Below are positions 1 through 50,212 of a DNA stretch of 50,820 nucleotides, in pieces (position 1 is the first letter of the stretch; each line of letters begins with the position of its first letter). The stretch is from the NCBI RefSeq assembly GCF_000275825.1, contig NZ_JH719942.1:1124988-1175807 (forward strand), read 5' to 3'. The notes under the pieces were generated by a model. That model did no database searches and was not told the DNA's origin. It saw nothing but the letters and a program-made list of their open reading frames with translations. Made by a program: the position numbers and the translations under genes. This stretch comes from Saprospira grandis DSM 2844. Lineage in GTDB: Bacteria > Bacteroidota > Bacteroidia > Chitinophagales > Saprospiraceae.

Positions 1-124
1 GGCTGAGGGATGGATAGCAGTGGCCCAAAGGGCCAGACCCAGCCGCCTTCGGCGGCGCAGGGCCGAGCAGACCTGCGAGCTGCGACACAGCCCGACCCGC
101 CCGAAGGGCGGGGCAGCCCCAAAA
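1..124 (-). repeat. GC-rich modular intergenic repeat (family A), copy 1, truncated at the window edge, reverse orientation, CATCCCTCAGCC subtype
   Basis: Shares cores gctgagggatgg...ggccgagcagacctgcgagc...cccgacccgcccgaagggcggggcagccccaaaa with the other copies. Confidence 0.8.
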
Positions 125-160
125 TAAAATGCTAAATAAGTCGCTAATTTTCAGTTTATT

Positions 161-1972
161 ATGAACAAAGAGGATTATAAAAAGCTTTTGCCCAGCCTGC
201 CGACTGATCCGGGGGTTTATCGATTTATTGGGGCCGATGAGGAGATTTTGTACATTGGAAAAGCCAAAAATCTCAAGAAGCGGATTGCCTCCTATTTTAC
301 GAGCCGCAAGGATATGCGCCTTAAGACGAAGCGGATGGTTATGTCCGCCAAAAAGCTAAATTATACGCTGGTAGAGACGGAGCAGGATGCCCTTTTGCTA
401 GAGGCTACGCTGATTAAAAAGCATCAGCCGCGTTATAATGTGGCCCTAAAACACAGTCGGCCCTACCCTTATATTTGCATTAAAAAAGAGCGTTTTCCGA
501 GGATTATGATTAGCCGAAAAGTGGTGCAGGATGGCTCTAAATATTATGGTCCTTATGTATCTAAAAAGCGGATGTATACGCTCTTAGAGCTAATTAAAGA
601 GTTGTTTCAGCTGCGTAGTTGTGCCCTCAATTTATCGGAGGAAAGCATTGCGGCGGGCAAGCATAAAGTTTGTCTTGAGTACCATATTAAAAATTGCAAG
701 GCGCCCTGTGTGGGTTTTGAGTTGGAGGCCAATTATATGGATAAAATTGAGCAGGTTCAAAATATGCTAAAAGGCCAATTGGGAGCGGTGCGCAAATACC
801 TCAAATCGGAAATGGGCCGCTATGCCGAGGAGCTCAATTTTGAGCAGGCGCAGCGCACGAAGGTCCAGTTGGCTTTGCTTGAAAACTATCAGGGAAAATC
901 GACGGTGGTGAATGCCAATATCCGTGATTTGGATGTTTTTACTTTGGCCCAAGATGAAAAAGGAGAGATGGCCTATATTAACTACCTTAAAGTGGTAGAA
1001 GGGGCGATTATTAACACCTTTATGCTAGAGCTCAAGCAGAATTTGGATACTGAAGGGGAGGATTTGTTGCTTTTTGGGATTCGAGAATTGCGGGAGAAAT
1101 TCCAGAGTATTGCGCCTGAAATTGTTGTCCCCTTCGAGCTTCAGCTGCCTTGGTCCGAGATCCAACTGACGGTCCCAAAAATTGGCGATAAGAAAAAGCT
1201 GCTAGAGCTTTCTGAGAAAAATGCCAAGTATTTCATCCTTCAAAAGCAAAAACAAGCCTTGGCCAAGGCCAACAAAATGGGCAAGGCCGAGCAGCTGTTG
1301 GAGATCATGAAAAAAGACCTACAAATTGATGATTTGCCTATTCATATTGAGTGTTTTGACAACTCCAATTTGCAGGGAAACCAGCCTGTTTCGGCCATGG
1401 TGGTTTTTAAAAATGGGCGGCCTGCCAAAAAAGAATATCGGCATTATCATGTCAAAACGGTAGTTGGTCCAGATGATTTTGCCTCTATGGAAGAGGTCGT
1501 TTTTCGCCGATACAAGCGCCTTTTGGAAGAGAAAAAGCCCCTCCCCCAGCTAATTGTCATTGATGGGGGCAAGGGACAACTTTCTGCGGCGGTCAAAAGC
1601 CTCAAAGCCCTAGGTATTTTTGAGCGTTTGGCCATTATTGGCATTGCAAAAAGGCTAGAGGAAATCTTTTTTCCCAATGATCCCGTTCCGCTTTTGCTCT
1701 CTAAAAAATCGCCGACGCTCAGGGTTATTCAGCAAGCTCGAGACGAGGCCCACCGCTTTGCTATTAGCTTCCACAGAGATGTTCGTTCTAAGCAATTTTT
1801 GCAAAATGAGCTGCGGCAAATTCCGGGGGTTGGCGAAAAAACCCAGGAGAAATTATTGTTGGCCTTGGGCTCCGTCAAAGAGGTCAAGAAGGCCAATTTA
1901 AGCCAATTGGAGGCCATTGTTGGACCAAATTTGGCTCAAAAAATCCGTACTTACTTCGATGCCAAAAGCTGA
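161..1972 (+). CDS. uvrC: Excinuclease ABC subunit C (UvrC)
   Basis: 603 aa. The N-terminal GIY-YIG motif (VYRFIGADEEILYIGKAKNLKKRIASYF) and the overall length and order are typical of UvrC, including the C-terminal HhH region. Confidence 0.9.
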   Translation: MNKEDYKKLLPSLPTDPGVYRFIGADEEILYIGKAKNLKKRIASYFTSRKDMRLKTKRMVMSAKKLNYTLVETEQDALLLEATLIKKHQPRYNVALKHSRPYPYICIKKERFPRIMISRKVVQDGSKYYGPYVSKKRMYTLLELIKELFQLRSCALNLSEESIAAGKHKVCLEYHIKNCKAPCVGFELEANYMDKIEQVQNMLKGQLGAVRKYLKSEMGRYAEELNFEQAQRTKVQLALLENYQGKSTVVNANIRDLDVFTLAQDEKGEMAYINYLKVVEGAIINTFMLELKQNLDTEGEDLLLFGIRELREKFQSIAPEIVVPFELQLPWSEIQLTVPKIGDKKKLLELSEKNAKYFILQKQKQALAKANKMGKAEQLLEIMKKDLQIDDLPIHIECFDNSNLQGNQPVSAMVVFKNGRPAKKEYRHYHVKTVVGPDDFASMEEVVFRRYKRLLEEKKPLPQLIVIDGGKGQLSAAVKSLKALGIFERLAIIGIAKRLEEIFFPNDPVPLLLSKKSPTLRVIQQARDEAHRFAISFHRDVRSKQFLQNELRQIPGVGEKTQEKLLLALGSVKEVKKANLSQLEAIVGPNLAQKIRTYFDAKS

Positions 1973-2451
1973 GTACTGGCCGTCTGCATCAAAATGCCAA
2001 AACTGACAGCTACGTTCAGACAAGAGGTTTGTCCATGCCCTTGAATATAAATTTTCTGATCGATCAAGGGCGCAATTTTTTCGGGCAAGCCCGTTTTTTC
2101 ATTGCCCACAATTAGCAAATCTTGGGCTTCAAACTGGACCTCATGCAGCATTTTGGCGCTAGGGTCCACCCAAGTGGCCATTTTTCGGCCTGGATAATTG
2201 GCCAGAAAATCGGCTACATCTAGAACGGGAATCACTTCAATGTGCTCAATGGCGCCAGCCGTCCAAACCCTGGCCATTTTCTCCATTTCGGCTCTGGCAA
2301 ATTTGCTTTTGCCTGGCGGTAGCAACAAGTCGTTTTGGTCGTAGATATAGATTTTCTTCAAGCCATAAAACTCTGCGGTCCGAATCATCGAGGATAAGTT
2401 CGGGCGATATTGAGGCGCATGTAATAAGGCGGCAAGTTGAGGTACTGACAT
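1951..2451 (-). CDS. TrmH/SpoU-family RNA 2'-O-methyltransferase
   Basis: SpoU-type motifs are present (LIVGNEKTGL; SCLNVAVSFGIL). The track ORF extends to 2562 but that N-terminal extension runs through a GC-rich repeat element. I place the start at the internal ATG (MSVPQ...) at 2451. Confidence 0.7.
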   Translation of the reverse strand: MSVPQLAALLHAPQYRPNLSSMIRTAEFYGLKKIYIYDQNDLLLPPGKSKFARAEMEKMARVWTAGAIEHIEVIPVLDVADFLANYPGRKMATWVDPSAKMLHEVQFEAQDLLIVGNEKTGLPEKIAPLIDQKIYIQGHGQTSCLNVAVSFGILMQTASTQLLASK

Positions 2452-2463
2452 ATTTATTTTTGT

Positions 2464-2583
2464 TTTTTGGGGCCTCCCGCCTTTGGCGGGCGCTACGTTT
2501 CGGGGCTCGCTGTTCGCTCGGCCCTGCGCGGGCTGCGCCCGCTTGGTCTGGCCTTCGGCCACCCCTGCACATCGCTAGGCCAA
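2464..2583 (+). repeat. Family A repeat, copy 2 (forward, CATCGCTAGGCC subtype)
   Basis: ttttggggcc...cgctacgtttcggggctcgctgttcgctcggccc...ggtctggccttcggccacc...catcgctaggcc. Confidence 0.8.
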
Positions 2584-2584
2584 A

Positions 2585-2623
2585 AAAGAGAGCCCCCAGC
2601 TAGCTGCGCTGGCTGGGGGCTCT
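2585..2623 (-). terminator. Rho-independent terminator downstream of the PfkB kinase gene
   Basis: Minus-strand hairpin gagcccccagccagcgcagctagctgggggctc followed by tcttttttt. It lies immediately 3' of the stop at 2642. Confidence 0.6.
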
Positions 2624-2641
2624 TGTGTAATAGAGCAAAGT

Positions 2642-3556: not shown

Positions 3557-3753
3557 AGTAAAATTGATTTTTTTTCTGGGCACAAAAAAACAGAAAAAGG
3601 CCGAAAAAACGGCAGCCTAGCCCCCTTTTTTGTCTAGCCCAAAAGAAACTCCATTTTTTTTATGTCTTTTTTTGCAAAAAGTTTGGCAAAACCAAAAAGG
3701 GCTCCTATATTTGCATACGCAAAGAGGGAACAGCCCTCTAAAAGCAAACACAC

Positions 3754-3827
3754 GCTTCCATAGCTCAGTTGGTTAGAGCATCTGACTGTTAATCAGAGGG
3801 TCCCTGGTTCGAGCCCAGGTGGGAGCG
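3754..3827 (+). tRNA. tRNA-Asn (GTT)
   Basis: Cloverleaf read by eye: acceptor gcttcca/tgggagc, D-arm gctc-agttggtta-gagc, anticodon loop ctGTTaa, T-arm cctgg-ttcgagc-ccagg. CCA is not encoded. Confidence 0.85.
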
Positions 3828-3852
3828 CTACTCATACACAACAATATATTTT

Positions 3853-3926
3853 GCTTCCATAGCTCAGTTGGTTAGAGCATCTGACTGTTAATCAGAGGGT
3901 CCCTGGTTCGAGCCCAGGTGGGAGCG
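3853..3926 (+). tRNA. tRNA-Asn (GTT), identical second copy
   Basis: Exact duplicate of the 3754-3827 sequence, 25 nt downstream. Confidence 0.85.
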
Positions 3927-3930
3927 CAAA

Positions 3931-3963
3931 AGCCCGACTTCATTTGAAGTTGGGCTTTTTTTA
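3931..3963 (+). terminator. Rho-independent terminator after the tRNA-Asn pair
   Basis: Hairpin agcccgacttca/tgaagttgggct followed by ttttttt. It can serve as a bidirectional terminator with the convergent minus-strand gene that ends at 3961. Confidence 0.7.
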
Positions 3964-4809: not shown

Positions 4810-4817
4810 TTTTTGCG

Positions 4818-5060
4818 GTGGACAGGCGGCGAAGCCGCCGCAGGCCTAGCGATGCGGAGGGGTGGCCGAAGGCCAGACCGAGCCGCTCTAAGCGGCGAAG
4901 GGCCGAGCAGACCTGCGAGCCCCATAGCGTAGCGCCTGCCGAAGGCAGGAGGCCCCAAAACAGCAGCGAGCCCCATAGCGACAACAAGCCCTTTAGGGCG
5001 CAGTTCGACGACCGCAGGGAGTAACCGCCGACGAGCGAAGCGAGGCAGGAGGCCCCAAAT
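4818..5060 (-). repeat. Family A repeat, copy 3 (reverse; composite/dimeric with optional module X)
   Basis: There are two ggaggccccaaa ends, at 4950-4964 and 5047-5060. It contains gacaacaagccctttagggcgcagttcgacgaccgcagggagtaacc (module X). Confidence 0.8.
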
Positions 5061-6240: not shown

Positions 6241-6336
6241 AGCTTTTTGTTTCCAGATTCTCTCATTTAACAGCCCTTTGGGGCTATGGTTGCCGCAAAG
6301 GTACAACTTTTTTCATCTGTTATTGAAAGTAGGAAT

Positions 6337-6485
6337 CTTTTGGGGCTTCCCCTGCGGCCTTCGGCCTTGGGTCGGGCTCTGTCGCAGCTCGCAAGTTTGC
6401 TCGGCCCTGCAGCGCTTTCAGCGCTTTGGTCTGGCCCTTCGGGCCCCTGCTATCCATCCCTAAGCCGAGTCGCTTCGCTCCTTTT
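6337..6485 (+). repeat. Family A repeat, copy 4 (forward, CATCCCTAAGCC subtype)
   Basis: ttttggggcttcccc...gggtcgggctctgtcgcagctcgcaagtttgctcggccc...ggtctggccc. Confidence 0.8.
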
Positions 6486-10116: not shown

Positions 10117-10220
10117 CAGTCTCTTTTTTTGTAAAAGCCTAGCGAATTTAAGAAAAAAAGCGCTTTGTGCCAATTTATACAAATTTGATTACAGATATAC
10201 GGATTCTTTTCACCTTTTTA

Positions 10221-10390
10221 TTTTTTTGGGGCTGCCCCGCCCTGCAGGCGGGTCGGGCTGTCTCAGGGCTCGCAAGCCTGCTCGGCCCTTCGCAAAAAAG
10301 CTGCGCTTTTTTGCTCGGTCTGGCCCTGCGGGCCACCCTTGCCCATCCCTCAGCCATTAAAAGCTGGCTGCGCCAGCCCCGCCCCAACAA
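10221..10390 (+). repeat. Family A repeat, copy 5 (forward, CATCCCTCAGCC subtype)
   Basis: tttttttggggctgccccgccctgcaggcgggtcgggctg...ctcgcaagcctgctcggccc...ggtctggccctgcgggccacc. Confidence 0.8.
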
Positions 10391-10391
10391 A

Positions 10392-10430
10392 AAAAAGCCG
10401 CAGTTGAATACTCAACTGCGGCTTTTTGCG
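10392..10430. terminator. Bidirectional rho-independent terminator
   Basis: Hairpin gccgcagttga-atact-caactgcggc flanked by an A-run on one side and a T-run on the other. It lies 3' of the minus-strand Fe-S protein gene, whose stop is at 10445. Confidence 0.65.
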
Positions 10431-10444
10431 CCAATCCACTCCGC

Positions 10445-12019: not shown

Positions 12020-12215
12020 GTGGCCCCGCCGTATTGGCCCAGCGCTGCGAAGGGGTGGCGCAAAGCGCCAGACCCAGGCGCTGAAAGCGCCGCAGGGCCG
12101 AGCAGACCTGCGAGCCCCGACAACAAGGACTTTAGTCCGCAGTTCGACGACCGAAGGGAGTAACCATAGCGGCGGCCGACCTAGGCAAAGCCTAGCCGGC
12201 CGCGGGCCCCAAAAC
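12020..12215 (-). repeat. Family A repeat, copy 6 (reverse; with module X)
   Basis: ggccgagcagacctgcgagccccgacaacaaggactttagtccgcagttcgacgaccgaagggagtaacc...gggccccaaaacc. It ends 10 nt before the protease start codon. Confidence 0.8.
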
Positions 12216-12224
12216 CATCTAATT

Positions 12225-14411: not shown

Positions 14412-14486
14412 ACAACGCTCAAAAAGGGGCATAAAAAAGGCCGCAGTTCCTTTTTAGGAACTGCGGCCAAGGTCTTGGCCAAGGAT

Positions 14487-15563: not shown

Positions 15564-15610
15564 TACAAATGGTTTACTGAAAAAATAGGTATGTATTTAT
15601 CTAGGAGGGT

Positions 15611-15765
15611 TTTGGGGCTGCCCCTGCGGCCTTCGGCCTGGGGTCGGGCTGTGTCGCAGCTCGCAGGTCTGCTCGGCCCTGCGGCGGCTTTGCCGCCTGG
15701 GTCTGGCCTGCGGCCACTGCTGTCCATCCCTCAGCCTGCGGCCCTTTGGGCCTGTAGGAGGCCGA
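15611..15765 (+). repeat. Family A repeat, copy 7 (forward, CATCCCTCAGCC subtype)
   Basis: Near-consensus copy: ttttggggctgcccctgcggccttcggcctggggtcgggctgtgtcgcagctcgcaggtctgctcggccctgcggcggctttgccgcctgggtctggcctgcggccac. Confidence 0.85.
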
Positions 15766-15770: not shown

Positions 15771-16214
15771 TTATTTTTTCAGTCGCATTTCGAGATAAGG
15801 ATTAGTAAATCCTAATTTTTCATAAAGATGTTTGGCGGGATTATCTTTTTCTACATGCAGAGCGATATCTCCGGGGGTTTGCTCAATTGCTGCCTGCATT
15901 AGTTGTTTTCCTAGGCCTTTTCCTCTAAATTGCGCATCTACGGCAATATAGACCAGGATATTTTCGGGGATATAGCCCGTCATACCTGTGCGATTTAGCA
16001 CTGTAGCGCCGGCCAATTGTCCTTGATGATAGATGCTAAAAATCTGGCCCCCAGCGGCTTGTTTTGTCTGGCCTAGGGAATAATCCATAGCGGCAAGAAT
16101 TTGCTCTTTGGGGTCTCCGTATTGTTCTAGATGTTTAAATAAAAAGTTGGCTATTTCTTCTTTCTCCGTTTCAGTTGGTTGATTATCAGGAGAGTAAGAT
16201 TTGATCGTTGCCAT
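15771..16214 (-). CDS. GNAT family N-acetyltransferase
   Basis: Acetyl-CoA-binding motif A (VDAQFRGKGLGKQLMQAA); 147 aa. Confidence 0.8.
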   Translation of the reverse strand: MATIKSYSPDNQPTETEKEEIANFLFKHLEQYGDPKEQILAAMDYSLGQTKQAAGGQIFSIYHQGQLAGATVLNRTGMTGYIPENILVYIAVDAQFRGKGLGKQLMQAAIEQTPGDIALHVEKDNPAKHLYEKLGFTNPYLEMRLKK

Positions 16215-16462: not shown

Positions 16463-16617
16463 GCAGGGCCGAAGGCCCGCAAAGGAGCGCAGCGACGCGG
16501 CTGAGGGATGGACAAGGGGGGCCGCAGGCCAGACCAAGGCGGCAAAGCCGCCGCAGGGCCGAGCAGACCTGCGAGCCCTGAAACAGCCCGACCCGCCTGA
16601 AAGGCGGGGCAGCCCCA
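16463..16617 (-). repeat. Family A repeat, copy 8 (reverse, CATCCCTCAGCC subtype)
   Basis: Reverse complement of the consensus. It ends gggcggggcagccccaacaaaaaaa, 17 nt before the Smr gene start. Confidence 0.85.
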
Positions 16618-16633
16618 ACAAAAAAATAAAAAG

Positions 16634-21818: not shown

Positions 21819-21832
21819 TTTTTTCTAGGCGT

Positions 21833-21990
21833 TTTTTTGGGGCTGCCCCTTCGCTTCGCTGCGGGTCGGGCCATTTCGCAGCTCGCAGGTCTGCTCGGCC
21901 CTTCGGCGCTTGCAGCGCCTCGGTCTGCCGCCTGCGGCGGCCCTGCTACAGCCCCTCAGCCGATAGGCTGGGGCTCCGCCCCAGCCCCAT
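21833..21990 (+). repeat. Family A repeat, copy 9 (forward)
   Basis: tttttttggggctgcccc...gggtcgggccatttcgcagctcgcaggtctgctcggccc...ggtctgccgcctgcggcggccc. Confidence 0.8.
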
Positions 21991-23137: not shown

Positions 23138-23280
23138 AGGCGCGAAGCGCCTGGCCTAGCGATGCGGCGGGGTGGCCCGAAGGGCCAGACCAAGCAGGCT
23201 TTGCCTGCGAAGGGCCGAGCAGACCTGCGAGCCCCAAAGCGTAGCGCAGCAAGGCGAAGCCGCAGCTGAGGCCCCAAAAC
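23138..23280 (-). repeat. Family A repeat, copy 10 (reverse, CATCGCTAGGCC subtype)
   Basis: ggcctagcgatgcggcggggtggcccgaagggccagacc...gggccgagcagacctgcgagcccc...gaggccccaaaac. Confidence 0.8.
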
Positions 23281-23318
23281 AGACAGACAAAAAAACCTAA
23301 CCCAACAATTATATTTTT

Positions 23319-26726: not shown

Positions 26727-26762
26727 ATCCCGCTAGTCATCATGACTAGGGGGATATTTTTT
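26727..26762 (+). terminator. Rho-independent terminator of the nuclease-helicase gene
   Basis: The hairpin cccgctagtcat/catgactaggggg is followed by atattttttt, which runs directly into the TTTTTGGGGCC start of a repeat element. Confidence 0.65.
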
Positions 26763-26905
26763 TGGGGCCTGCCGCCTTTGGCGGCCGGGCCCTTACAGGG
26801 CTCGCAGTTCTGCTCGGCCCTGCGTCGCCTTCGGCTCCTTGGTCTGGCCTGCGGCCACCCTTACAGGCCCCTAGGCCGTTTGGCCTTCGGCCATAGGGCG
26901 GCTTA
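26754..26905 (+). repeat. Family A repeat, copy 11 (forward, CATCGCTAGGCC-like subtype)
   Basis: tttttttggggcctgccgcctttggcggcc...ctcgcagttctgctcggccc...ggtctggcctgcggccaccc...ggccgtttggccttcggcc. Confidence 0.8.
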
Positions 26906-26939
26906 GCTATGCTATTCGGTCTTTGTAGAACAATCGAGA

Positions 26940-27088
26940 CTGTTTAAAGTTTTCTGTTTCTCCTTTTTGCTGCCTAGAAACAAGCCCCTAGACTCGCTTT
27001 TTTAGACAGCCCTCTAAAGAGGGCCTTTGGAGAAGGTTCTTCTCTGCGATAACAACTGAACAAGGCCCAGTATATCAACAGTTGAGGC
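26940..27088. repeat. Second repeat family (element B), copy 1
   Basis: About 85% identical to 38858..39008: gtttaaagttttctgtttctcctttttgctgcctagaaacaagcccctagactcgc...cagacagccctctaaagagggcctttgga...aacaactgaacaaggcc...tatatcaacagttgaggc. Confidence 0.7.
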
Positions 27089-27093
27089 TAAGT

Positions 27094-27160
27094 AGTTTAC
27101 TTCCAGACCGAACTAGTTTACCCCCAGACCGAACTAGTTTACCCCCAGACAGAACTTTTG
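27094..27160. repeat. Short tandem repeat (about 22 bp x 3; agtttaccYccagaccgaact)
   Basis: Seen directly: two perfect units and one degenerate unit, immediately after element B copy 1. Confidence 0.7.
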
Positions 27161-27297
27161 CCTTTTTTCATTTTGTTGCGTTATTTTTATTTTTAACAAA
27201 GCTCTAACAATTAGGCATAAAAAAAGGCGCAAAACCTAGGTTTTACGCCTTTTTCGGTGGCCGAAGCGGGAGGTCTAGCTTAGAACTAGCTGTTGAT

Positions 27298-27420
27298 CGG
27301 CCTAGCGATGCGGAAGGGGGCGGCGAAGCCGCAGACCAAGGCCGTCAGGCCGCAGGGCCGAGCAGCCTTGCGAGCCCTGCAGCGTAGCGCCTGCCGCAGG
27401 CAGGAGGCCCCAAAACAAAA
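27298..27420 (-). repeat. Family A repeat, copy 12 (reverse, CATCGCTAGGCC subtype, short)
   Basis: ggcctagcgatgcggaagggggcggcgaagccgcagaccaaggccgtcaggccgcagggccgagcagccttgcgagccc...ggaggccccaaaac. Confidence 0.8.
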
Positions 27421-27472
27421 AAGGCCAGCCCCAGAGGAGCTGACCTTCGTCAGTAGTTAGTTAGCTAAGTCA

Positions 27473-32491: not shown

Positions 32492-32536
32492 CTAAATGCT
32501 GTTAAAATGTGTTTGATAAAATGCTTATGTAATTTA

Positions 32537-32690
32537 TTTTTGGGGCTGCCCCGCCCTGCGGGCGGGTCGGGCTGTGTCGCAGCTCGCTACTCGCTCGGCC
32601 CTGCAGCAGCAAAGCTGCTTGGGTCTGCCGCCTTCGGCGGCCCTGCTTTCCATCCCTCAGCCAGTCGCTTCGCTCCTTAAAGAATAACTC
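32537..32690 (+). repeat. Family A repeat, copy 13 (forward, CATCCCTCAGCC subtype)
   Basis: ttttggggctgccccgccctgcgggcgggtcgggctgtgtcgcagctcgctactcgctcggccc... It lies 46 nt upstream of the adhesin start codon. Confidence 0.85.
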
Positions 32691-33149
32691 CTAGCTTTTT
32701 ACTCCATCCAATCTGTATGCGCCCTAAAAAGAGCACAAATATATACTTCTTTATTAGCTCTAGTCAATATAAAAATTAAACTCATTGCGTAATAAAATTA
32801 TTTTGACGGCAAAAAAAAACCAATATCTCCAAATAAAAAATCAAACAACCTCTATTTTACAGTTTTTTATACTACCTTAAGCTAGAACCTAAATTTATTT
32901 CAGTAATAAATTCAACTCATACAAGAGATCACTTTGCTCTGAAAAGTCACTTTTTTTAGCTCTTATTTTTATATATTTTTTTCTTAAAGCTTAATTCTTG
33001 TCAAGGATAAGTCGCTATACCGTTTATTGCCCATATTTCTACGGTAAAATTACTAGACACTTTGCCTCTTTTATTGCCCTCTCTGCCCTTACGACTATTT
33101 TGTACCTACGGACTTCAAAACAGAAATAAAAACCTGATAATCAAAAAAA

Positions 33150-33195
33150 AAGGGTGGACAGCTATTTAAATAGCTTGCCCCAAGCGGCTTCTTTT
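33150..33195 (-). terminator. Probable terminator downstream of the OmpA-family gene
   Basis: The palindrome agctatttaaatagct is followed on the minus strand by gtccaccctttttttttg. Confidence 0.4.
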
Positions 33196-35171: not shown

Positions 35172-35358
35172 TCAGGGCGGGCCGAAGGCCCGCCGGCCTA
35201 GCGATGTGCAGCAGTGCGGCGCAGCCGCAGACCAAGGCCGTCAGGCCGCAGGGCCGAGCGAGTAGCGAGCTGCGAAACGACAACAAGGTCTTTAGACCGC
35301 AGTTCGACGACCGAAGGGAGTAACCGCCGACGACCGAAGGGAGGCGGAGGCCCCAAAT
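35172..35358 (-). repeat. Family A repeat, copy 14 (reverse; with module X)
   Basis: ggcctagcgatgtgcagc...gggccgagcgagtagcgagctgcgaaacgacaacaaggtctttagaccgcagttcgacgaccgaagggagtaaccgcc...ggaggccccaaat. Confidence 0.8.
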
Positions 35359-35431
35359 CTCCTACAGCATTTTATAATAAACGCTTCTGCCATAAAAAAA
35401 AGGGCCAAAAGGCCCTAAAGTTCTCTTAAAA

Positions 35432-36629: not shown

Positions 36630-37043
36630 ATGTCTATTCAACATCATTCTATTGCTCTTCAGGCCAAAAACCGAGGATTCCACCTCATTACCACAGAGGT
36701 TTTGCAGCAATTGCCCAAACTTCCCCAAAATGGCCTTTTTCAACTCTTTATTCAACATACTTCGGCTGGCCTGACGATCAACGAGAATGCCGACCCCGAT
36801 GTCCGTATGGATTTTGAAACGATTTTCAACCGCCTGGTCCCCGAAAACCAACAAGGCCTCTTGCATACCCTAGAAGGCCCCGACGATATGCCCGCCCACA
36901 TTAAAACCGCTTTCACAGGCACAAGTTTAAGTATTCCCATTATTCAAGGCCAACTCGCCCTAGGAACTTGGCAGGGGCTCTATCTTTGCGAGTTTAGAAA
37001 CTATGGTGGCCGCCGAAAACTGATCGCTACAATTATAGATTAG
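36630..37043 (+). CDS. YjbQ-family protein (UPF0047, secondary thiamine-phosphate synthase-like)
   Basis: 137 aa, typical of YjbQ family members (TSAGLTINENADPDVRMDFE...). Confidence 0.8.
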   Translation: MSIQHHSIALQAKNRGFHLITTEVLQQLPKLPQNGLFQLFIQHTSAGLTINENADPDVRMDFETIFNRLVPENQQGLLHTLEGPDDMPAHIKTAFTGTSLSIPIIQGQLALGTWQGLYLCEFRNYGGRRKLIATIID

Positions 37044-37045
37044 GA

Positions 37046-37190
37046 TTTGGGGCCTCCGCCTCGCTGCGCTCGTCGGCGCTACGCTTTGGGGCTCGCAGGT
37101 CTGCTCGGCCCTTCGCCAGCAAGCTGGCTCGGTCTGGCCTAACGGCCACCCCACCGCATCGCTAGGCCAGGCTGGCCTTCGGCCAGCCTT
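37046..37190 (+). repeat. Family A repeat, copy 15 (forward, CATCGCTAGGCC subtype)
   Basis: ttggggcctccgcc...cgctacgctttggggctcgcaggtctgctcggccc...ggtctggcctaacggccacc...catcgctaggccaggctggccttcggccagcc. Confidence 0.8.
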
Positions 37191-38788: not shown

Positions 38789-38857
38789 TATAAGGCCTTG
38801 CTCCTTAGTAGAATATTAGATGATCCCCTCCTCGGAGGGGATTTGAGCCTGTTTAAA

Positions 38858-39050
38858 ATTTTGTGTTTCTCCTTTTTGCTGCCTAGGGACAAGCCCCTAG
38901 GCTAGCTTTTTCAGACAGCCCTCTAAAGAGGGCCTTTGGATGAGGTTTTTCTCTGTGACAACAACTGAACAAGGCCTTGTATATCAATAGTTGAGGCCCT
39001 CGCAGAGGGCTGACTCCATTGGATTAGCCTAGGGGCTTGTCCCTGGGCGA
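38858..39050. repeat. Second repeat family (element B), copy 2, with 21-bp terminal inverted repeats
   Basis: About 85% identical to 26940..27088. The internal inverted repeat is ctgcctagggacaagcccctaggct ... agcctaggggcttgtccctgg. There are internal hairpins (gccctctaaagagggc; gccctcgcagagggc). Confidence 0.7.
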
Positions 39051-39137
39051 CTATTGGCCAAATCCCAACAAGCTAAAGGCCCAAATTTTATTCTAATACA
39101 CAAAATCCTGAACAGTCCCAGGGATTTTTTTTGTGCC

Positions 39138-39484
39138 CTATTCGACAGAGATCAAACAGCTCATCAAAGTCTTGATGCCCTATTCGACAGAGATCTAATA
39201 CCCCATCAAAGGCTTGATGCCCTATTCGACAGAGATCTAATACCCCATCAAAGGCTTGATGCCCTAGTTGACAGAGATCAAACAGCCCATCAAAGGCTTG
39301 ATGCCCTAGTTGACAGAGATCTAATACCCCATAAAAGGCTTGATGCCCTAGTTGACAGAGATCAAATACCCTATAAAAGGCTTGATGCCCTAGTTGACAG
39401 AGATCAAATACCCCATCAAAGGCTTGATGCCCTATTCGACAGAGATCTAACAGCTCATCAAAGGCTTGATGCCCTAGTTGGTCC
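39138..39484. repeat. 42-bp tandem repeat array (8 full units plus a partial unit), frame-preserving
   Basis: The units begin at 39138, 39180, 39222, 39264, 39306, 39348, 39390 and 39432. Consensus: ctaKtYgacagagatcWaaYaSCYcatMaaaGKcttgatgcc. There are no interspersed unique spacers. Confidence 0.9.
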
Positions 39485-39520
39485 AAAAACAAAAGGGGCT
39501 GCTCGATATCGAGCAGCCCC
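39480..39520 (-). terminator. Rho-independent terminator downstream of the outer-membrane protein gene
   Basis: The perfect palindrome ggggctgctcgatatcgagcagcccc is followed on the minus strand by ttttgtttttgg. Confidence 0.7.
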
Positions 39521-39543
39521 TTTGCAGCAGGTCCTAAGTCATC

Positions 39544-41226
39544 TTAGAACTTAGCCATTACACCAATTTTTCCATTGATGCCCAATTGCTGATAGAGGTA
39601 CCAGCGTTGGTATTTATTATTGAGCAAATTATTGCCTTCTACAAAGAAAGCAAAGCGTTGTTGCTCTCCTTTTCCGAGCCAGTAAGTAGCATTGAGGTTA
39701 AGGTCAAACAAGCCGCCAAGAGTTTCGCTTTCGGTGCCCAAGGCAGGGAGATAAGGCACGCCCGCATTGACAAAGAGGTCGGCCCCAACTTCTAGATTGC
39801 CTTTTTTGTATGTCAGGCCAAAGCTAGACTCCAAAACAGGCAGATGATAAGCCACTTCAGCCGTTCCGCCACTATAGTTATTAAAGGCCAAAGCGCCTTT
39901 AAAGTAGAGTTCCTCCATAATTTGGAGTTCTACATCTGCGGCCAGGGTTAGGCGGCTGAGCGTATCATAGGCCAGACCAAATTTCAGATAATTGCTTTCT
40001 GTGGTATTATAGAAAAGGGGTTGTTGGCTCAAATTGGCATAAGAGACATTAAAGTCGTAGCCTAGGCGCTTAATCTTCCCTTTGAGTCCCCCATAAAAGC
40101 GGCTTTCTTGCGTATGTTCCCAATGCAGGCGCTCTGTATCTAAGAAAGGATTATAAGTAGAGAGCTGCATGAGGGTATTTTCACGGATGCTGCCCGACCA
40201 ACCTGCATAGGGAATAAATTGGCCCCCTAAAACGGCATAGCTCAACTCAATATCGGGCAAAACGAAAAACTGTCCGGCATTGCTTCCTAAGCGGGCGCCT
40301 AGACGGCTCTTAAAGTTGCCAAAATTGAGGTCGGCTCCAGCATGCAATTGGGCCAGGCTGCGGCTTTGGCTGCTATCGGTGGTGGTATAGCGGCTATACA
40401 GCAGCTCGGCATTGGCAAAGAGGCGATGTTGAGGGCTGCGGCTATTGCCCAACCATTTTTCAAAAACAAGGCGGGGGCGGATATTGAGCTCGCCAACGCC
40501 ATGATAAGAAGTGGTGTTATAGAGGTCCAGATCGGCTCTATAGTTCATCTCTTGTTTATTACTTTTGGCATTGAAGAGATGAATATTGGCCCCTATTGTA
40601 AGGTAGCGTTGTTTGAGGCTATCTTCGGCTAGGCCAGAGCTATCTTGGGCAAAGGGATAGAGGCTATCGCCTAGGTTTTCGAGGAGTTGGTGGTAGCCAT
40701 AGTAGCGATAATTATTGAGGTCCATATTTAGGGCGCCGCCAATGGCTAGGCCATTAGGCAGAAAATAATCGCCTTGTAGATTTACTGAGGTTTCGCCAAA
40801 AACTTGGTCCTCTAAGTTACCTTGGCTACTATGGTGTTTGGCTGTAGCTCCAAAGCTAAACTTATCGCTATTGCTATTGTGGTAAGAGAGTTCTAGCAAA
40901 GGGGAAAGAGGGAAACCAATGCCCGCCTTTGTATAAAAGTGGAGACTTTTGGGGGGCTTAGGCACCGGCATAGCCAGTGGGCGGATATTAGGTTCTGGAT
41001 AATTGACCGAGACGATCCGTTCGGGGACCAGATAGGTCAATTTTTGGCCAGCGGTGGTATCCAAATCGGCTAAAAGAGGCTGAGCCTCCTGCTTTTTACT
41101 TTCGGCCAATTGGGCCTTAAAGGGTTTGACTAGCTCGGTCCCTACATCATTGATTTGGGCCTTTAGGTTGGGGGCAAAAAGCCCAACAGCCAAAGCTAAA
41201 CAAAGAGATTTACTATATTTTATCAT
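39544..41226 (-). CDS. Outer-membrane beta-barrel protein (hypothetical)
   Basis: Signal peptide (MIKYSKSLCLALAVGLFAPNLKAQ), alternating amphipathic beta-strand pattern and a C-terminal aromatic residue (…GVMAKF). Confidence 0.6.
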   Translation of the reverse strand: MIKYSKSLCLALAVGLFAPNLKAQINDVGTELVKPFKAQLAESKKQEAQPLLADLDTTAGQKLTYLVPERIVSVNYPEPNIRPLAMPVPKPPKSLHFYTKAGIGFPLSPLLELSYHNSNSDKFSFGATAKHHSSQGNLEDQVFGETSVNLQGDYFLPNGLAIGGALNMDLNNYRYYGYHQLLENLGDSLYPFAQDSSGLAEDSLKQRYLTIGANIHLFNAKSNKQEMNYRADLDLYNTTSYHGVGELNIRPRLVFEKWLGNSRSPQHRLFANAELLYSRYTTTDSSQSRSLAQLHAGADLNFGNFKSRLGARLGSNAGQFFVLPDIELSYAVLGGQFIPYAGWSGSIRENTLMQLSTYNPFLDTERLHWEHTQESRFYGGLKGKIKRLGYDFNVSYANLSQQPLFYNTTESNYLKFGLAYDTLSRLTLAADVELQIMEELYFKGALAFNNYSGGTAEVAYHLPVLESSFGLTYKKGNLEVGADLFVNAGVPYLPALGTESETLGGLFDLNLNATYWLGKGEQQRFAFFVEGNNLLNNKYQRWYLYQQLGINGKIGVMAKF

Positions 41227-41258: not shown

Positions 41259-41420
41259 GGACAGGCGGCGAAGCCGCCGCAAAGGAGCGCAGCGACGCGG
41301 CTGAGGGATGGAGAGGGTGGCCCGCAGGGCCAGACCGAAGCGCTTTAGCGCTGAAGGGCCGAGCAGACCTGCGAGCCCGGAACAGCCCGACCCGCCCGCA
41401 GGGCGGGGCAGCCCCAAAAA
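41259..41420 (-). repeat. Family A repeat, copy 16 (reverse, CATCCCTCAGCC subtype)
   Basis: gacaggcggcgaagccgccgc...gctgagggatgg...gggccgagcagacctgcgagcccgg...gggcggggcagccccaaaaaaa. Confidence 0.85.
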
Positions 41421-41429
41421 AAGAAAGAT

Positions 41430-44579: not shown

Positions 44580-44669
44580 GAAGTTCTATTTAATTTTAAA
44601 GGAGTCTTTCCTAGAGAATCATTCTAATAAGTTCTTAGCTCAAGATACAGTTTTTTAACTGTTTTATGA

Positions 44670-44832
44670 TTTTGGGGCCTCCGCAGCAAAGCTGCGGCGC
44701 TACGCTTTGGGGCTCGCAAGTCTGCTCGGCCCTTCGTTTTTCGCTACGCTCAAAAACTCGGTCTGGCCTTCGGCCACCCCGCCGCATCGCTAGGCCAGAT
44801 GGCCTACGGCCAAGGCGGCTTTGCCGCCTTCT
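44670..44832 (+). repeat. Family A repeat, copy 17 (forward, CATCGCTAGGCC subtype)
   Basis: ttttggggcctccgcagcaaagctgcggcgctacgctttggggctcgcaagtctgctcggccc...ggtctggccttcggccacc...catcgctaggccagatggcctacggcc. Confidence 0.8.
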
Positions 44833-44884
44833 GCTCCAAGAAAGCAGTTTAGTAATTTAGGCCCAAAAATAATGCCTTGAGCGC

Positions 44885-45715: not shown

Positions 45716-45772
45716 AACAAATATAGATTCTAGGGTAGTGGGCAAAAATAAGGGCTGGGCTGGGGAGCAAAT

Positions 45773-45889
45773 GGCCTAGCGATGTGCAAGGGTGGCCGTC
45801 AGGCCAGACCGAGGCGCAAAGCGCCGAAGGGCCGAGCAGGCCTGCGAGCCCTGGAACGTAGCGCCTGCCGAAGGCAGGAGGCCCCAAAA
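45773..45889 (-). repeat. Family A repeat, copy 18 (reverse, short, CATCGCTAGGCC subtype)
   Basis: ggcctagcgatgtgcaagggtggccgtcaggccagacc...gggccgagcaggcctgcgagccc...ggaggccccaaaaa. Confidence 0.8.
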
Positions 45890-45903
45890 ATAACAGCAGT
45901 AAG

Positions 45904-45943: not shown

Positions 45944-45980
45944 AAGGGCTTTATTATGAATCGGAATGAGGAGTTAGATC

Positions 45981-47840: not shown

Positions 47841-47971
47841 AATTATGGAAGTTTCCCTTCCGGGACGGTTTAAAAATGTGAATAAATTAATGTTTGCATT
47901 TCCTAAAAAAGAAAAATGCTTGCAAAAGTAAGCTTTTGGGGCTTCTTTTACAAGCTATTATAGGTTTATTT

Positions 47972-49912
47972 TTACTCCTCTTCCCAAAAGGCTTCTAGGG
48001 CCAATTCGGCGGCTTCCCATTTTTCCATGGCTTCTTCTGTAGCCGCTTCATTTTCTTGATGTTTGGCTAAGGCTTTTTCATAATTGGGGGTTCCAAATTT
48101 GCTGCTATCGCCCAAGGTTTTTTCCAGTTTATTTTTCTCTTCTTCTAGTCGTTGCAGTTGTCGTTCTGCATTCTGGATATTTCTTTTGAGTTGTTTGAGG
48201 GCTTGCTTGACCGCTGGGTCGTTTTCATCTTTTTTGGGCTTGGCTTTTTTGCTGCTGCCGCTGTTGTTGGCCGTTTTGCCCAAAGAAACATCTCGCAGGC
48301 TGCCGTATTGGCGTTTTTTAAGGAAGTATTCAGAGTCGCCCAAATAGGTTTTGAGCTTCTTTTGGTCAAATTCAATAACTTTATCGGTCAAGCTATCCAA
48401 AAAGTCTCTATCGTGAGAAACCACCACCAAGGTCCCATCATAATGCAAAAGGGCCTCTTTCAAAATGGCCTTAGAAAGCATATCGAGGTGGTTGGTGGGT
48501 TCATCCAGTACCAATAAGTTGATGGGGTGCAAAAGCAAGCAGGCCATAGCTAGGCGGGCCCGTTCTCCTCCCGATAAAACCGATACTTTTTTGTCTACAT
48601 CCTCCCCCTTAAAGAGAAAGGAGCCCAAAATAGCCCGTAGTCGGGGACGCAGCTCGAAGGGGGCATCTTGTTCTATAGTTTCTAAAACGGTCTTTTTGGG
48701 GTCTAGGGCTTCGGCCTGATTCTGTGCATAGTAGCCCAAATGGACATTATGGCCCAATTCGCTTGTTCCGCCGGTGGGCAGCTGTTGGCCCACCATTATT
48801 TTCACTAAGGTCGATTTTCCCTCTCCGTTTTTGCCCATAAAGGCTAGGCGTTCGCCTCGGATGATGGTCAAATCTACCTCATTCAAGATCAAATTATCGC
48901 CATAGCTTTTGCTCAGCCCCTTAACAATGGCTACTCTTTCGCCAGAGCGAGGTGCTGGCGGAAACTCCAAACGCATCCGGCTGCTATCGCCATCTTCTAG
49001 CTCGATCCGCTGCATGCGGTCCAATTCCTTGATGAGCGATTGGGCCATTTTGGCCTTATTGGCCTTGGCTCTAAACTTATCGACTAGGGCTTCTTTGCGG
49101 GCAATTTCTTTTTGCTGCTGCTGAAAAGCCGACTGCATTTGGGCCTGCCGCTCTTCTCGCAATTCTAAATATCGAGAGTAGTTGGCTTTATAATCATGCA
49201 CTTTGCCCAACTCAATCTCAATGGTGCGCTGCGTCACCTTGTCCAAAAAGGCTTTATCGTGAGAAATTACAATCACGGCCCCTTCATAAGGCTGTAAAAA
49301 CTGCTCGAGCCAAATGATAGATTCAATATCCAAATGGTTGGTGGGCTCATCCAAAAGCAAAAGCTGTGGCCGCTGCAAGAGGATTTTGGCCAACTCGATC
49401 CGCATTTGCCAGCCCCCACTAAAAGTAGTGGTTTGTCGATCAAAATCACTGACCGAAAAGCCCAAGCCCATCAAGATTTTCTCGGCTTCGGCTTGCAAGC
49501 TTTGGCCACCAATCAAGGCCAGACGGTCGTTTAATTCCGATAATTCATGAATCAGCTCCATATAGCCATCGCTGCTATAATCGGTCCGCTCCTCCATTTC
49601 TTGCTGAATCTCTTCTAGGCGTTTTTCCATGGCCTGCGCCTTGGCAAAAGCCGTCATGGCCTCTTCCAACACCGTTTTGCCCTTGGGCAAGAGCATATCT
49701 TGATGCAAAAACCCGATGCTGAGGTCTTTAGGAGCGGCAATATTGCCTTGCATGGGCGCAATTTGTCCCGCAATAATCTTAAGCATAGTCGATTTCCCCG
49801 CCCCATTTCGGCCCGTCAGACCAATGCGGTCTTTTTCTCGCACCGTAAAGGAAACCTGGTCCAATAATCGGCGATCGCCATATTGTACATATATATTCTG
49901 AAGGTTCAGCAT
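47972..49912 (-). CDS. ABC-F family ATPase (tandem ABC domains, no TMD; Uup/YheS/EttA-like)
   Basis: Two sets of Walker A (GRNGAGKST; GKNGEGKST), signature (LSGGWQMR; LSGGERAR) and Walker B motifs, separated by a linker. There is a C-terminal coiled-coil. Confidence 0.9.
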   Translation of the reverse strand: MLNLQNIYVQYGDRRLLDQVSFTVREKDRIGLTGRNGAGKSTMLKIIAGQIAPMQGNIAAPKDLSIGFLHQDMLLPKGKTVLEEAMTAFAKAQAMEKRLEEIQQEMEERTDYSSDGYMELIHELSELNDRLALIGGQSLQAEAEKILMGLGFSVSDFDRQTTTFSGGWQMRIELAKILLQRPQLLLLDEPTNHLDIESIIWLEQFLQPYEGAVIVISHDKAFLDKVTQRTIEIELGKVHDYKANYSRYLELREERQAQMQSAFQQQQKEIARKEALVDKFRAKANKAKMAQSLIKELDRMQRIELEDGDSSRMRLEFPPAPRSGERVAIVKGLSKSYGDNLILNEVDLTIIRGERLAFMGKNGEGKSTLVKIMVGQQLPTGGTSELGHNVHLGYYAQNQAEALDPKKTVLETIEQDAPFELRPRLRAILGSFLFKGEDVDKKVSVLSGGERARLAMACLLLHPINLLVLDEPTNHLDMLSKAILKEALLHYDGTLVVVSHDRDFLDSLTDKVIEFDQKKLKTYLGDSEYFLKKRQYGSLRDVSLGKTANNSGSSKKAKPKKDENDPAVKQALKQLKRNIQNAERQLQRLEEEKNKLEKTLGDSSKFGTPNYEKALAKHQENEAATEEAMEKWEAAELALEAFWEEE

Positions 49913-49965
49913 GATTATTTTCTTTTAGTCGCCGCAAAAATAGCCTTTTTCTTTGAAATAATAAT

Positions 49966-50212
49966 TTTTTGGGGCCTCCGCTGCGGCCTGCGGCCTTGCG
50001 GCGGTTACTCCCTTTGGTCGTCGAACTGCGCCCTAAAGGGCTTGTTGTCGCTTTGCAGCTCGCTGAGGTTTTGGGGCCTCCGCTGCGGCCTGCGGCCTTG
50101 CGGCGCTACGTTTCGCAGCTCGCTACTCGCTCGGCCCTGCGGCCTGACGGCCTGGGTCTGCGGCTGCGCCGCACTGCTGCACATCGCTAGGCCGAATGGC
50201 CTTCGGCCATTT
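49966..50212 (+). repeat. Family A repeat, copy 19 (forward dimer; first unit carries module X, second is the CATCGCTAGGCC subtype)
   Basis: Two ttttggggcctccgctgcggcctgcggccttgcggcg heads, at about 49968 and 50079. The first is followed by the complement of module X (ggttactccctttggtcgtcgaactgcgccctaaagggcttgttgtcg). Confidence 0.8.

Follow-up and report, generated by a model that had tools for sequence, protein, structure and literature searches.

What are the GC-rich sequences that recur between the genes of Saprospira grandis DSM 2844, and how did they come to be there? The question is raised by a 50,820-nt stretch of this genome (RefSeq assembly GCF_000275825.1, contig NZ_JH719942.1, positions 1,124,988 to 1,175,807), which we analyzed as a whole and refer to as the window. 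A first-pass annotation, made from the letters alone, had described 19 copies of a dispersed, modular, hairpin-dense, non-coding repeat family here; that description holds, but it missed the long-range fold of the repeat, the strand bias of its loops, its turnover between strains, the rule by which its head is placed and the alternating orientation of neighboring copies. We consider that the copies form a new family of intergenic repeats, similar in kind to repetitive extragenic palindromes (REPs), bacterial interspersed mosaic elements (BIMEs) and enterobacterial repetitive intergenic consensus (ERIC) sequences, which has no enzyme of its own and was spread in the past by an enzyme acting in trans, a reading to which we give about even confidence. 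Bacterial intergenic palindromic repeats are well known as a kind; what is unusual here is the fold, the loop code, the replacement of cassettes in place and the alternation over kilobases.

Repeat units and their distribution

A profile hidden Markov model (HMM), built from 15 simple copies and searched with nhmmer, recovered all 19 loci (E values of 2e-27 to 1e-10), with none other above noise, and a covariance model (CM) scored every one of them at 68-131 bits, so that both the number of copies and their coordinates are confirmed. The head motif TTGGGGCNNCC occurs 19 times in the window against 1.06 expected, and chance or low complexity as the origin of the signal is ruled out by the HMM and CM scores and by motif shuffles. 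The listed intervals have a GC content of 0.64-0.73, compared to ~0.47 for the window, and a 200-nt composition profile shows sharp peaks of 0.58-0.68 at these loci and ~0.47 elsewhere. Together the intervals sum to 3,063 nt, i.e., 6.0% of the window, in line with the original estimate, and the copies occur in both orientations, as had been noted (10 on the plus and 9 on the minus strand). Open reading frames (ORFs) that overlap the repeats were ruled out as real genes, their translations being repeat-encoded, of low complexity and present in several frames.

Alignment of the 19 intervals, each oriented by its TTGGGGC end (the head), demonstrated shared blocks in a fixed order within a GC-rich, non-coding unit of ~125 nt. 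All the cores quoted in the first-pass annotation exist, but only some of them are common to the whole family, namely TTTTGGGGC, GCTCGC(N5-6)GCTCGGCCC and GGTCTG; the rest define two subtypes, type I with the order GGGGCTGCCC ... GGGTCGGGCTGTGTCGCAG ... CCATCCCTCAGCC, and type II with the order GGGGCCTCC ... GGCGCTACG ... GCATCGCTAGGCC. An additional module of ~45 nt (the X module) is present in four loci, two of which are composites where a second, partial unit bears it (4818-5060 and 49963-50212), the other two being single units where it takes the place of the GCTACG segment (12020-12218 and 35172-35362). Optional hairpin modules follow many of the tails and are included in several of the listed intervals, and the interval 10221-10390 also takes in an inverted solo head.

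Every copy in the window, and every copy on the plasmids described below, is intergenic, with one copy per 2.3-2.8 kb. The claim that nearly every intergenic region is occupied did not hold, since a gene map built from the ORF list places copies in 17 of 33 internal intergenic regions, about half; most regions longer than ~150 nt do contain one, but their length is itself due to the copy.

The family is not a local duplication. A BLAST search using one copy as a query returned 17-18 unannotated matches on each of three Saprospira plasmids (from S. grandis WH, S. grandis Lewin, and Saprospira sp. CCB-QB6), where HMM and CM scans located 21-22 copies per 50 kb, the same density as in the window, and a separate region of the S. 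grandis WH chromosome contains seven full copies and a partial head at the locus end in 20.8 kb. Extrapolation from these densities gives ~1,500 copies per 4.25-Mb genome. With this number of copies, and ~6% of the DNA, few non-coding repeat families of any bacterium would, to our knowledge, be denser. The window is 94% identical to the complete WH and Lewin chromosomes and 86-88% identical to that of QB6, with an identical L20 protein in all three, and its composition agrees with the reported S. grandis GC content of 46.6% (PMC10508125).

Outside the genus, a scan of one genome per species identified the exact 22-nt core of the repeat, GCTCGCARGYCTGCTCGGCCCT, in at least two Lewinellaceae and at least two Saprospiraceae metagenome-assembled genomes (MAGs), whose GC content, among the matches listed, runs from 36% to 63%. 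Full-length CM matches are present in these MAGs and in a genus-level relative. In the Lewinellaceae, a family within the Saprospirales, the copies keep the head, the core and the general plan but differ at the ends (GGGCGTG ... CTCACGC). The genus-level relative (S1 protein 84% identical, 40% GC) carries three diverged copies in 22 kb, one of them (L018:11995-12136) in the same rpsA-tsaB gap as the eighteenth copy of the window; this copy carries the core variant of its own genome, not that of its counterpart in the window. No copies were found in a 21-kb locus of Aureispira anguillae (CM and HMM scans) or in a 22-kb locus of a more distant relative (CM scan), and viral contigs gave no match, on which ground phage origin or carriage was rejected.

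A search of the whole window against Rfam 15 at the gathering threshold returned two tRNAs only, and a search of two copies at E<=10 returned noise only; we therefore rejected a known RNA family. The plasmid records carry no annotation of the repeats, and in the searchable literature we found no name for the core and no account of Saprospiraceae repeats, although a brief earlier mention is possible. This agrees with the initial view that the family is unnamed, and our best reading is that it spans the order Saprospirales and is previously undescribed. A covariance model for so far unannotated repeats of this kind would aid annotation, assembly and operon prediction across the Saprospirales. 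Saprospira contigs assembled from short reads in Logan are 2-5 kb long, and several begin or end inside a copy; the uvrC product was recovered solely on short contigs that stop within the repeats. Public drafts of this clade will be systematically fragmented at gene boundaries, because assemblies break at the repeats.

Fold, placement and turnover

RNAalifold predicted 31 base pairs from 17 copies, 18 of them with compensatory changes. When 48 sequences, taken from all genomes, were aligned to the model, pairing held in 95.4% of cells, and both sides had changed in 26 of the 31 pairs, figures that lean toward structure since this alignment was fitted to the model; none of 500 shuffles matched these values, and slid controls pair at 39-55%. 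Read on the head strand, a T-run is followed by GGGGC, and a 5-bp stem (P1) closes the unit by pairing with the 3′ end, which reads ...CATC(C/G)CT(C/A)(A/G)GCC. Within this stem are a variable hairpin (P2), two long-range helices (P1b and P3), the 22-nt core, which is invariant, mostly unpaired and has the GCTCG box twice in direct orientation, a second variable hairpin (P5) inside a helix (P4), and a third variable hairpin (P6). P1 differs by lineage, being GGCTG:CAGCC, GGCCT:AGGCC or GCGTG:CACGC, and, whatever the subtype, P3 takes the forms GCAG:CTGC, GGGG:CCCC or AGGG:CCCT. Swapping of whole modules could account for some of the compensatory changes seen in the variable hairpins, but long-range helices that covary across subtypes and genera are harder to attribute to this.

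Placement of the unit follows its polarity. All 19 heads in the window lie within 100 nt of a gene end, 11 facing a 5′ end and 8 a 3′ end, and many come immediately behind the T-run of a terminator or ahead of an A-rich leader. A run of three to nine T precedes every head, and TTTT is also present at the internal junction of the composites. In 31 of 39 copies it is the head, and not the tail, that has the shorter distance to a gene, and where two copies share an intergenic region they are arranged tail-to-tail (6 of 6 doublets).

In addition, neighboring copies alternate in orientation: 17 of 18 neighbor pairs in the window, 21 of 21 on the WH plasmid and 6 of 7 in the separate WH chromosomal region, i.e., 44 of 46 pooled (P = 1.5e-11). 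Put differently, the two copies that bound a stretch both turn their heads, or both their tails, toward it; head-bracketed stretches always contain genes and tail-bracketed stretches are sometimes empty. The pattern holds across convergent and divergent gene pairs too, and it is not derivable from T-run targeting, because gaps between tandem genes offer both orientations. Neighbors are no more similar to each other than non-neighbors (permutation p 0.5-0.7), and on this basis we rejected local inverted duplication or neighbor co-evolution as the cause of alternation, although gene conversion could have erased such a signal. In the few copies from other genera, where detection is incomplete, alternation is not significant. 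An alternating array survives inversion between inverted copies and deletion between direct copies, and is broken by any single addition. The pattern may have arisen either by the gain and loss of copies in pairs or blocks, or by the purging of close direct repeats, or by a function of inverted pairs; purging would work because alternation maximizes the spacing of direct repeats and thus minimizes the load of lethal deletions. We found no report of alternation at the kilobase scale for dispersed bacterial repeats, and it points to strong selection on repeat geometry (e.g., the avoidance of deletions) or to a pairwise function.

Whole copies stay at their sites between strains, and it is their interiors that change. 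All of the ~20 plasmid sites compared in three strains (5-9% diverged overall) and all seven chromosomal sites compared in four to five strains (6-14% diverged) are occupied. Orthologous copies differ ~1.5 times more than their flanks. For example, 8 of 37 changed loops had flipped to their exact reverse complement with the stems unchanged (AAA/TTT, AGA/TCT, GCA/TGC, and CAAA/TTTG); some orthologous copies had the whole P3-to-P3 cassette replaced; one site had a type I unit in place of a type II unit; strains differed by the gain or loss of the X module and of an 18-nt hairpin; and in one strain the interior was cut down to the X module between head and tail. Candidate donor interiors with 92-97% identity are present elsewhere in our small sample. 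We read these sequence differences as probable signs of frequent gene conversion among copies and of hairpin-mediated inversion, and the replacement of interiors at fixed sites makes the family a natural system in which to study both ectopic gene conversion and hairpin inversion.

The one indel that involves whole copies removes a gene with them. Positions 26,890-33,178 of the window are missing as one block in S. grandis WH and in one metagenomic strain; this block consists of a gene for a 1,672-aa surface protein and of the twelfth and thirteenth copies, whose heads face the gene. The gene (27473-32491, minus strand) encodes a secreted protein with many 264-nt (88-aa) repeats of calcium-binding type (DxDxDGxxD), and Lewin and QB6 have a longer homologue (2,386-2,451 aa) in its place.

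Strain-variable additional DNA in intergenic regions was considered as a source of new family copies and rejected, as the cases in QB6, in Lewin and in an S8-peptidase/racemase gap all proved unrelated. The CCB-QB6 plasmid has, beside a family copy, a strain-specific 198-nt insertion (L024:21208-21405) with the direct repeat ATTT(A/C)AT on either side, which is a different and classical element resembling a MITE (a miniature transposable element with inverted repeats) with a target-site duplication. The Lewin plasmid has a Lewin-specific, AT-rich insert of ~290 nt in a glycosyltransferase/OmpA gap (L023:21790-22085). The convergent S8-peptidase/racemase gap in WH (L034:5830-6290) holds ~470 nt with ~7 tandem 42-nt hairpin units (GCAAATGCAGATTAGCTCTGGCGCCACGCCAGAGGCGTTTT), an array likewise present in Lewin, QB6 and a further locus (L032), and the corresponding gap in the window (14412-14486) is only a 75-nt terminator.

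A proposed mobile origin and its rivals

The nature of the folded molecule bears directly on how the copies arose. Pairing is almost entirely Watson-Crick, with 485 such cells versus only 5 cells that hold a variable wobble pair, 2 on one strand and 3 on the other; one invariant G.T pair (of G.U type on the head strand) is present in P4. Each variable hairpin forms a perfect palindrome centered on a loop of 3 nt, and we rejected UUCG or UNCG RNA tetraloops, a register that breaks the stems. These loops are strongly oriented. On the head strand, the window contains TTC 23 times and GAA once, and TGC 17 times and GCA never (P about 2e-11); the plasmids contain 38 TTC and 31 TGC, with GAA and GCA not among the 25 commonest loops, and AAA (25) and TTT (19) balanced. 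On the opposite strand the same loops read as GAA and GCA triloops with a C:G closing pair, the motif of DNA mini-hairpins whose stability is unusually high. When folded as DNA, the reverse strand had the covariation structure as its minimum free energy structure in three of three copies and the head strand in one of three; the z-scores of these folds are modest, and GC-rich shuffles also fold well. No promoter of the element itself is evident at the heads, the TAnnTTTG box being complete in only 2 of 19, and an element-borne Bacteroidetes promoter was rejected on this count. A single-stranded DNA form is easier to reconcile with these observations than RNA, because the constraint is strand-specific while copies lie in both senses and have no evident promoter of their own. 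This analysis points to one strand folding as a single-stranded nucleic acid, and the selected form, we infer, is probably DNA. A conserved fold with strand-specific loops implies a single-stranded form, DNA or RNA, that is recognized by an enzyme or binding protein, possibly of a Bacteroidetes subclass of REP-associated tyrosine transposases (RAYTs).

We looked for such an enzyme. A Pfam scan of ten ORFs in the window (nine of unclear function, and a 147-aa ORF) found no transposase, integrase or HUH domain, and the remaining ORFs are, by translation, ordinary genes. The 147-aa ORF (15771-16214), which lies between inverted copies and was a candidate IS200-like transposase, is a GNAT acetyltransferase in Pfam. 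These searches, together with a motif scan described below, bear out the earlier observation that the window has no transposase, integrase or RAYT-like gene. The term non-autonomous, which had been applied to the copies, presupposes a mobility that is an interpretation; in every strain comparison that we made, whole copies were found at the same sites. The most concrete lead to an enzyme would be TnpA-Y1 subclass 2.6, which is specific to Bacteroidetes and has on its flanks "atypical secondary structures" that recur at other places in the genome (PMC6006769); Saprospira is not named in the supplements of that study.

In the mechanism that we propose, one strand would fold as a single-stranded nucleic acid, most likely DNA, and this would probably be the 5′-GGC...GCCCCAAAA-3′ strand with its GAA and GCA triloops. 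A trans-acting enzyme encoded elsewhere, for which HUH/RAYT is the candidate kind, would bind the fold and the core and would formerly have dispersed the copies, placing them in a set orientation beside T-runs at gene boundaries (terminator tails, and the complement of A-rich leaders). The present copies would be sessile, changing by exchange with one another (gene conversion of cassettes or units), by hairpin inversion, and by the gain or loss of small modules, and would be passively co-transcribed into untranslated regions (UTRs) and intercistronic RNA in either sense. The T-run as the target, the class of enzyme and past mobility itself are all inferred parts of this account.

Several known systems resemble this account in part. 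Like REPs and BIMEs, which are known from enterobacteria and pseudomonads, the Saprospira repeats are high-copy, GC-rich extragenic palindromes that lie in operons and after genes in both orientations, are modular, keep their positions between strains and have no transposase nearby; their density of ~6% is several times that of REPs in E. coli. A REP, however, is a single hairpin of 20-40 nt with a 5′ GTAG or CGTC tag, as opposed to a ~125-nt unit of five or six helices with a 22-nt core. In type II copies GTAG does occur four bases before hairpin P2 on the reverse strand, and type I copies are without it. Units within BIMEs also alternate in orientation (PMC2817692), but over tens of bases, whereas alternation in Saprospira extends over kilobases and across genes. 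REPs are accompanied by RAYTs; for the Saprospira repeats, the 368 kb of scanned sequence gave no HUH-Y1 signature. The first-pass annotation had compared the family with BOX and ERIC elements while noting the different sequence, and this comparison is apt. ERIC elements, found in Enterobacteriaceae and Vibrio, are ~127-bp imperfect palindromes in transcribed intergenic regions, in either orientation and with no known transposase, and ERIC variants enlarged by insertions at fixed internal sites are comparable to our X module; but ERICs, also called intergenic repeat units (IRUs), form one long hairpin, are far fewer, are restricted to Gammaproteobacteria and, by eye, have no similarity to the Saprospira cores. 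BOX elements of Streptococcus pneumoniae are modular (boxA-boxB(n)-boxC), intergenic and structured, with no known mobilizing enzyme; their modules are conserved in sequence, whereas the Saprospira hairpins keep structure and not sequence, and no similarity is visible by eye, either to BOX or to Correia elements. The palindrome-associated transposable elements (PATEs) and REPtrons of the IS200/IS605 type share the lack of terminal inverted repeats and target-site duplications, the subterminal hairpins and strand-specific features that would suit a single-stranded DNA substrate, may share an oriented placement 3′ of a short flank (here TTTT, which composites also have at their internal junction), and differ in that the Saprospira hairpins vary in sequence, show no replication bias in orientation and have no TnpA in the scanned sequence. 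Finally, integron attC sites also conserve structure over sequence, function as one folded DNA strand, and follow each gene cassette; but they form same-orientation arrays beside an integrase and flank accessory cassettes, whereas the copies studied here alternate, flank housekeeping genes and have no integron integrase.

A number of our results weigh against dispersal by a trans-acting enzyme. A motif scan for HUH-Y1 across 368 kb (the window, the plasmids and the other loci) found no signature. We found no terminal inverted repeats beyond the 5-bp complementarity of P1 and no direct repeats flanking the simple copies at 2464, 27298 and 45773, where a duplication would have been visible, since the 198-nt element of QB6 shows one; with every compared site occupied, and the sole indel comprising a gene with two copies, the features that define a cut-and-paste, DDE-derived MITE were not observed. 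No presence/absence polymorphism of a single copy was seen across the plasmid and chromosomal sites, which makes mobility a purely historical proposition. The orientation of copies in the window (10:9) is unlike the replication-biased insertion of IS200/IS605, and near-perfect alternation is not predicted by independent insertions. In addition, TTC and TGC loops have kept their orientation in old, immobile copies, while AAA and TTT loops flip freely, a difference that a model of selfish lineages does not readily account for and that suggests ongoing selection on resident copies.

The strongest rival takes the repeats to be cis-acting RNA elements that the host uses in UTRs and intercistronic regions, much as REP/BIME or ERIC sequences act in the operons of enterobacteria, e.g., as stable GC-rich folds for protection of mRNA from 3′ exonucleases, attenuation of read-through, or as processing sites; inverted pairs of copies could be substrates of an orphan Cas6 or of RNase III, and the origin of the elements may still be mobile DNA. 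We regard this as possible but distinctly less probable than the mobile account. Many copies lie 0-4 nt past stop codons in the operons pur and paa, or have a promoter motif on one side and a start codon on the other, and their positions are conserved across strains and, once, across genera. The structure supported by covariation and the invariant G.U-type pair of the head strand in P4 would both suit an RNA, but the variable helices are almost without G-U pairs, there is no match in Rfam and no promoter is evident at the heads. Copies lie in both senses relative to transcription (11 vs 8), so that no single RNA strand can be selected in all of them, yet the loop bias is strand-specific. Alternating orientation makes adjacent copies always mutually complementary; however, alternation extends across convergent and divergent pairs that are unable to share a transcript, and neighbors are no more complementary than random pairs. 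S. grandis does encode an orphan Cas6, with no cas neighbors, but its homologues are confined to Saprospira whereas the repeat family is order-wide. This gene (L029:10001-10822 in S. grandis WH, CP110854.1) matches TIGR01877 at 67.8 bits, above the cutoff, and is flanked by genes for an OmpA-family protein and a 2-oxoacid dehydrogenase E2, with no other cas gene within 10 kb. It has only seven homologues among 5.8 billion proteins, all in Saprospira and of high identity, and it was rejected as a co-distributed partner of the repeats. As a candidate hairpin-RNA endonuclease in a genome rich in hairpin repeats, it is a lead in its own right.

Somewhat less probable again is that the repeats are architectural DNA sites, where a host protein binds the 22-nt core, with its GCTCG boxes about one helical turn apart, and inverted pairs bracket blocks of genes as oriented boundary or looping elements; the alternating orientation would then be explained. 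BIMEs, which bind IHF and gyrase, provide a precedent. The core is kept in genomes of 36% to 63% GC (among the matches listed) while the hairpins vary, positions are conserved, 44 of 46 neighbor pairs alternate with all doublets tail-to-tail, and a gene with two inward-facing heads is present or absent as a unit between strains. However, no binding protein is known, and a double-stranded binding site needs neither covarying hairpins nor strand-specific loops. Head-bracketed and tail-bracketed blocks both contain ordinary genes with no visible functional difference, and alternation is not significant in the few, incompletely detected copies of other genera.

A related proposal, which we consider improbable, is that the copies are oriented boundary elements that act in inverted pairs, by means of a core-binding protein or a duplex between copies, and partition the chromosome and plasmids into blocks of genes. 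If so, this partitioning would have left its footprint in the alternation and in the gene that comes and goes along with its two copies, and the repeats would be a bacterial analogue of "convergent sites" or genome-wide processing stems. The least probable explanation, and one that we think very unlikely, is retroposition of SINE-like (short interspersed nuclear element-like) copies, where a 5′-GGC...GCCCC-AAAA(n)-3′ RNA with a tRNA-like fold is copied by a reverse transcriptase priming on T-runs: the 3- to 9-nt A/T run at the head, the oriented placement by T-runs, and the compact closed fold with loops optimized on that strand would fit it, but there are no target-site duplications, pairing is Watson-Crick only with none of the G-U tolerance of RNA, the TTTT is kept where the two units of a composite meet and so seems to belong to the unit, the sequence examined has no visible reverse transcriptase, and we know of no bacterial precedent. 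An RNA role, architectural sites, and retroposition may also be layers of present-day function on top of the mobile origin that we prefer.

Individual copies and other features of the window

The copies are numbered here from left to right, with their coordinates and CM scores. Copy 1 (1..128, minus strand) is a type I copy (126.3 bits; nhmmer 3e-27) that is cut by the edge of the window on its left and whose head, GCCCCAAAA on the plus strand, is 36 nt upstream of the uvrC start. Copy 2 (2461..2584, plus strand; type II, 122.7 bits) has its head 12 nt from the start codon of a SpoU-like gene in our gene map, and its tail toward the pfkB terminator. Copy 3 (4818..5060, minus strand; 126.9 bits) is a composite with two heads, in which positions 4840-4964 are a full type II unit, positions 4965-5060 a partial one that bears the X module, and positions 4818-4839 a tail hairpin, and its head follows the terminator of a radical-SAM gene (5092-5063). 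Copy 4 (6334..6485, plus strand; 123 bits) is type I with the tail module GAGTCGCTTCGCTCC. Copy 5 (10220..10392, plus strand; 121.3 bits) consists of a type I unit (10220-10358) and the inverted solo head, which has a hairpin (~10345-10392, minus strand) and lies directly after the terminator of an Fe-S gene; copies 4 and 5 are the only neighbors in the window that do not alternate.

Copy 6 (12020..12218, minus strand; 83.1 bits) has the X module (12118-12165) in place of the GCTACG segment, and its head is 9 nt from the start of the S8 peptidase gene. Copies 7 (15606..15765, plus strand; 110.7 bits) and 8 (16463..16624, minus strand; 122.4 bits), both type I, the former with a tail hairpin and the latter with tail modules, form an inverted repeat of 91% complementarity around the GNAT gene; the head of copy 8 is 16 nt from the start of a Smr-domain gene. 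Copy 9 (21831..21990, plus strand; 99.2 bits) is type I-like, with its head 14 nt past the stop codon of the upstream gene, and copy 10 (23138..23283, minus strand; type II, 119.5 bits) has its head 38 nt upstream of the start of a helicase gene. The head of copy 11 (26756..26905, plus strand; 109.5 bits) follows the terminator of the helicase gene, and this copy is in a tail-to-tail doublet with copy 12 (27296..27420, minus strand; type II, 109.3 bits), the head of which follows the terminator of the 1672-aa surface-protein gene. Copy 13 (32534..32690, plus strand; type I, 114.3 bits) lies between a Bacteroidetes-type promoter motif (32736-32767, minus strand) and the start of the same gene; judged by this motif, it is probably in the 5′ UTR.

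Copy 14 (35172..35362, minus strand; 68.2 bits), an X-module variant that was also detected as an inverted repeat, is 96% identical over 100 nt to copy 19. Copy 15 (37041..37190, plus strand; type II, 119 bits) has its head 2 nt past the yjbQ stop codon, and copy 16 (41259..41423, minus strand; type I with tail modules, 114.8 bits) has its head 9 nt past the stop of a TPR gene. A promoter −7 box is located beyond the tail of copy 17 (44666..44832, plus strand; type II, 113.5 bits), at 44864-44871 on the minus strand, and the position of this box suggests that the 5′ UTR of the TPR gene probably includes copy 17. Copy 18 (45770..45893, minus strand; type II) has the rpsA terminator on one side and the tsaB promoter on the other, and its score of 131.2 bits is the highest. 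Copy 19 (49963..50212, plus strand; 98.8 and 21.9 bits) is a composite in which a partial unit bearing the X module (49963-50064) is joined to a complete unit of type II (50065-50196) and to a tail hairpin that resembles a terminator.

Other features of the window are separate from the family. The two tRNAs found by Rfam are tandem tRNA-Asn(GTT) genes (3754-3828 and 3853-3927; 70.2 bits each), preceded by a Bacteroidetes promoter, TTG-N19-TATATTTG (3683-3713), and followed by a terminator, with no repeat copy in the region. In the genus-level relative of 40% GC, an apparently structured intergenic stretch of 180 nt (L018:20690-20870) has 62% GC; it does not belong to the family and has no Rfam match at E<=0.01. 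A second, unrelated repeat of 153 nt is present twice in the window (26936-27088 and 38845-38997, 90% identical) and once in another Saprospira contig (L030:11902-12034, 81%); it is AT-richer, has hairpins of its own and no Rfam match at the gathering threshold, and may represent a gene for a small RNA or a further mobile element. Three tandem 23-nt units (27105-27180), TAGTTTAC(C/T)(C/T)CCAGAC(C/A)GAAC, lie in the gap where the helicase and surface-protein genes converge. Finally, positions 39050-39553 hold a tandem repeat of ~12 units of 42 nt, which showed up as nine 168-nt frames that overlap in 42-nt steps, with central units that are 77-92% identical; the array has ORFs on both strands, with a putative 14-aa periodic peptide, DALFDRDLIPHQRL.

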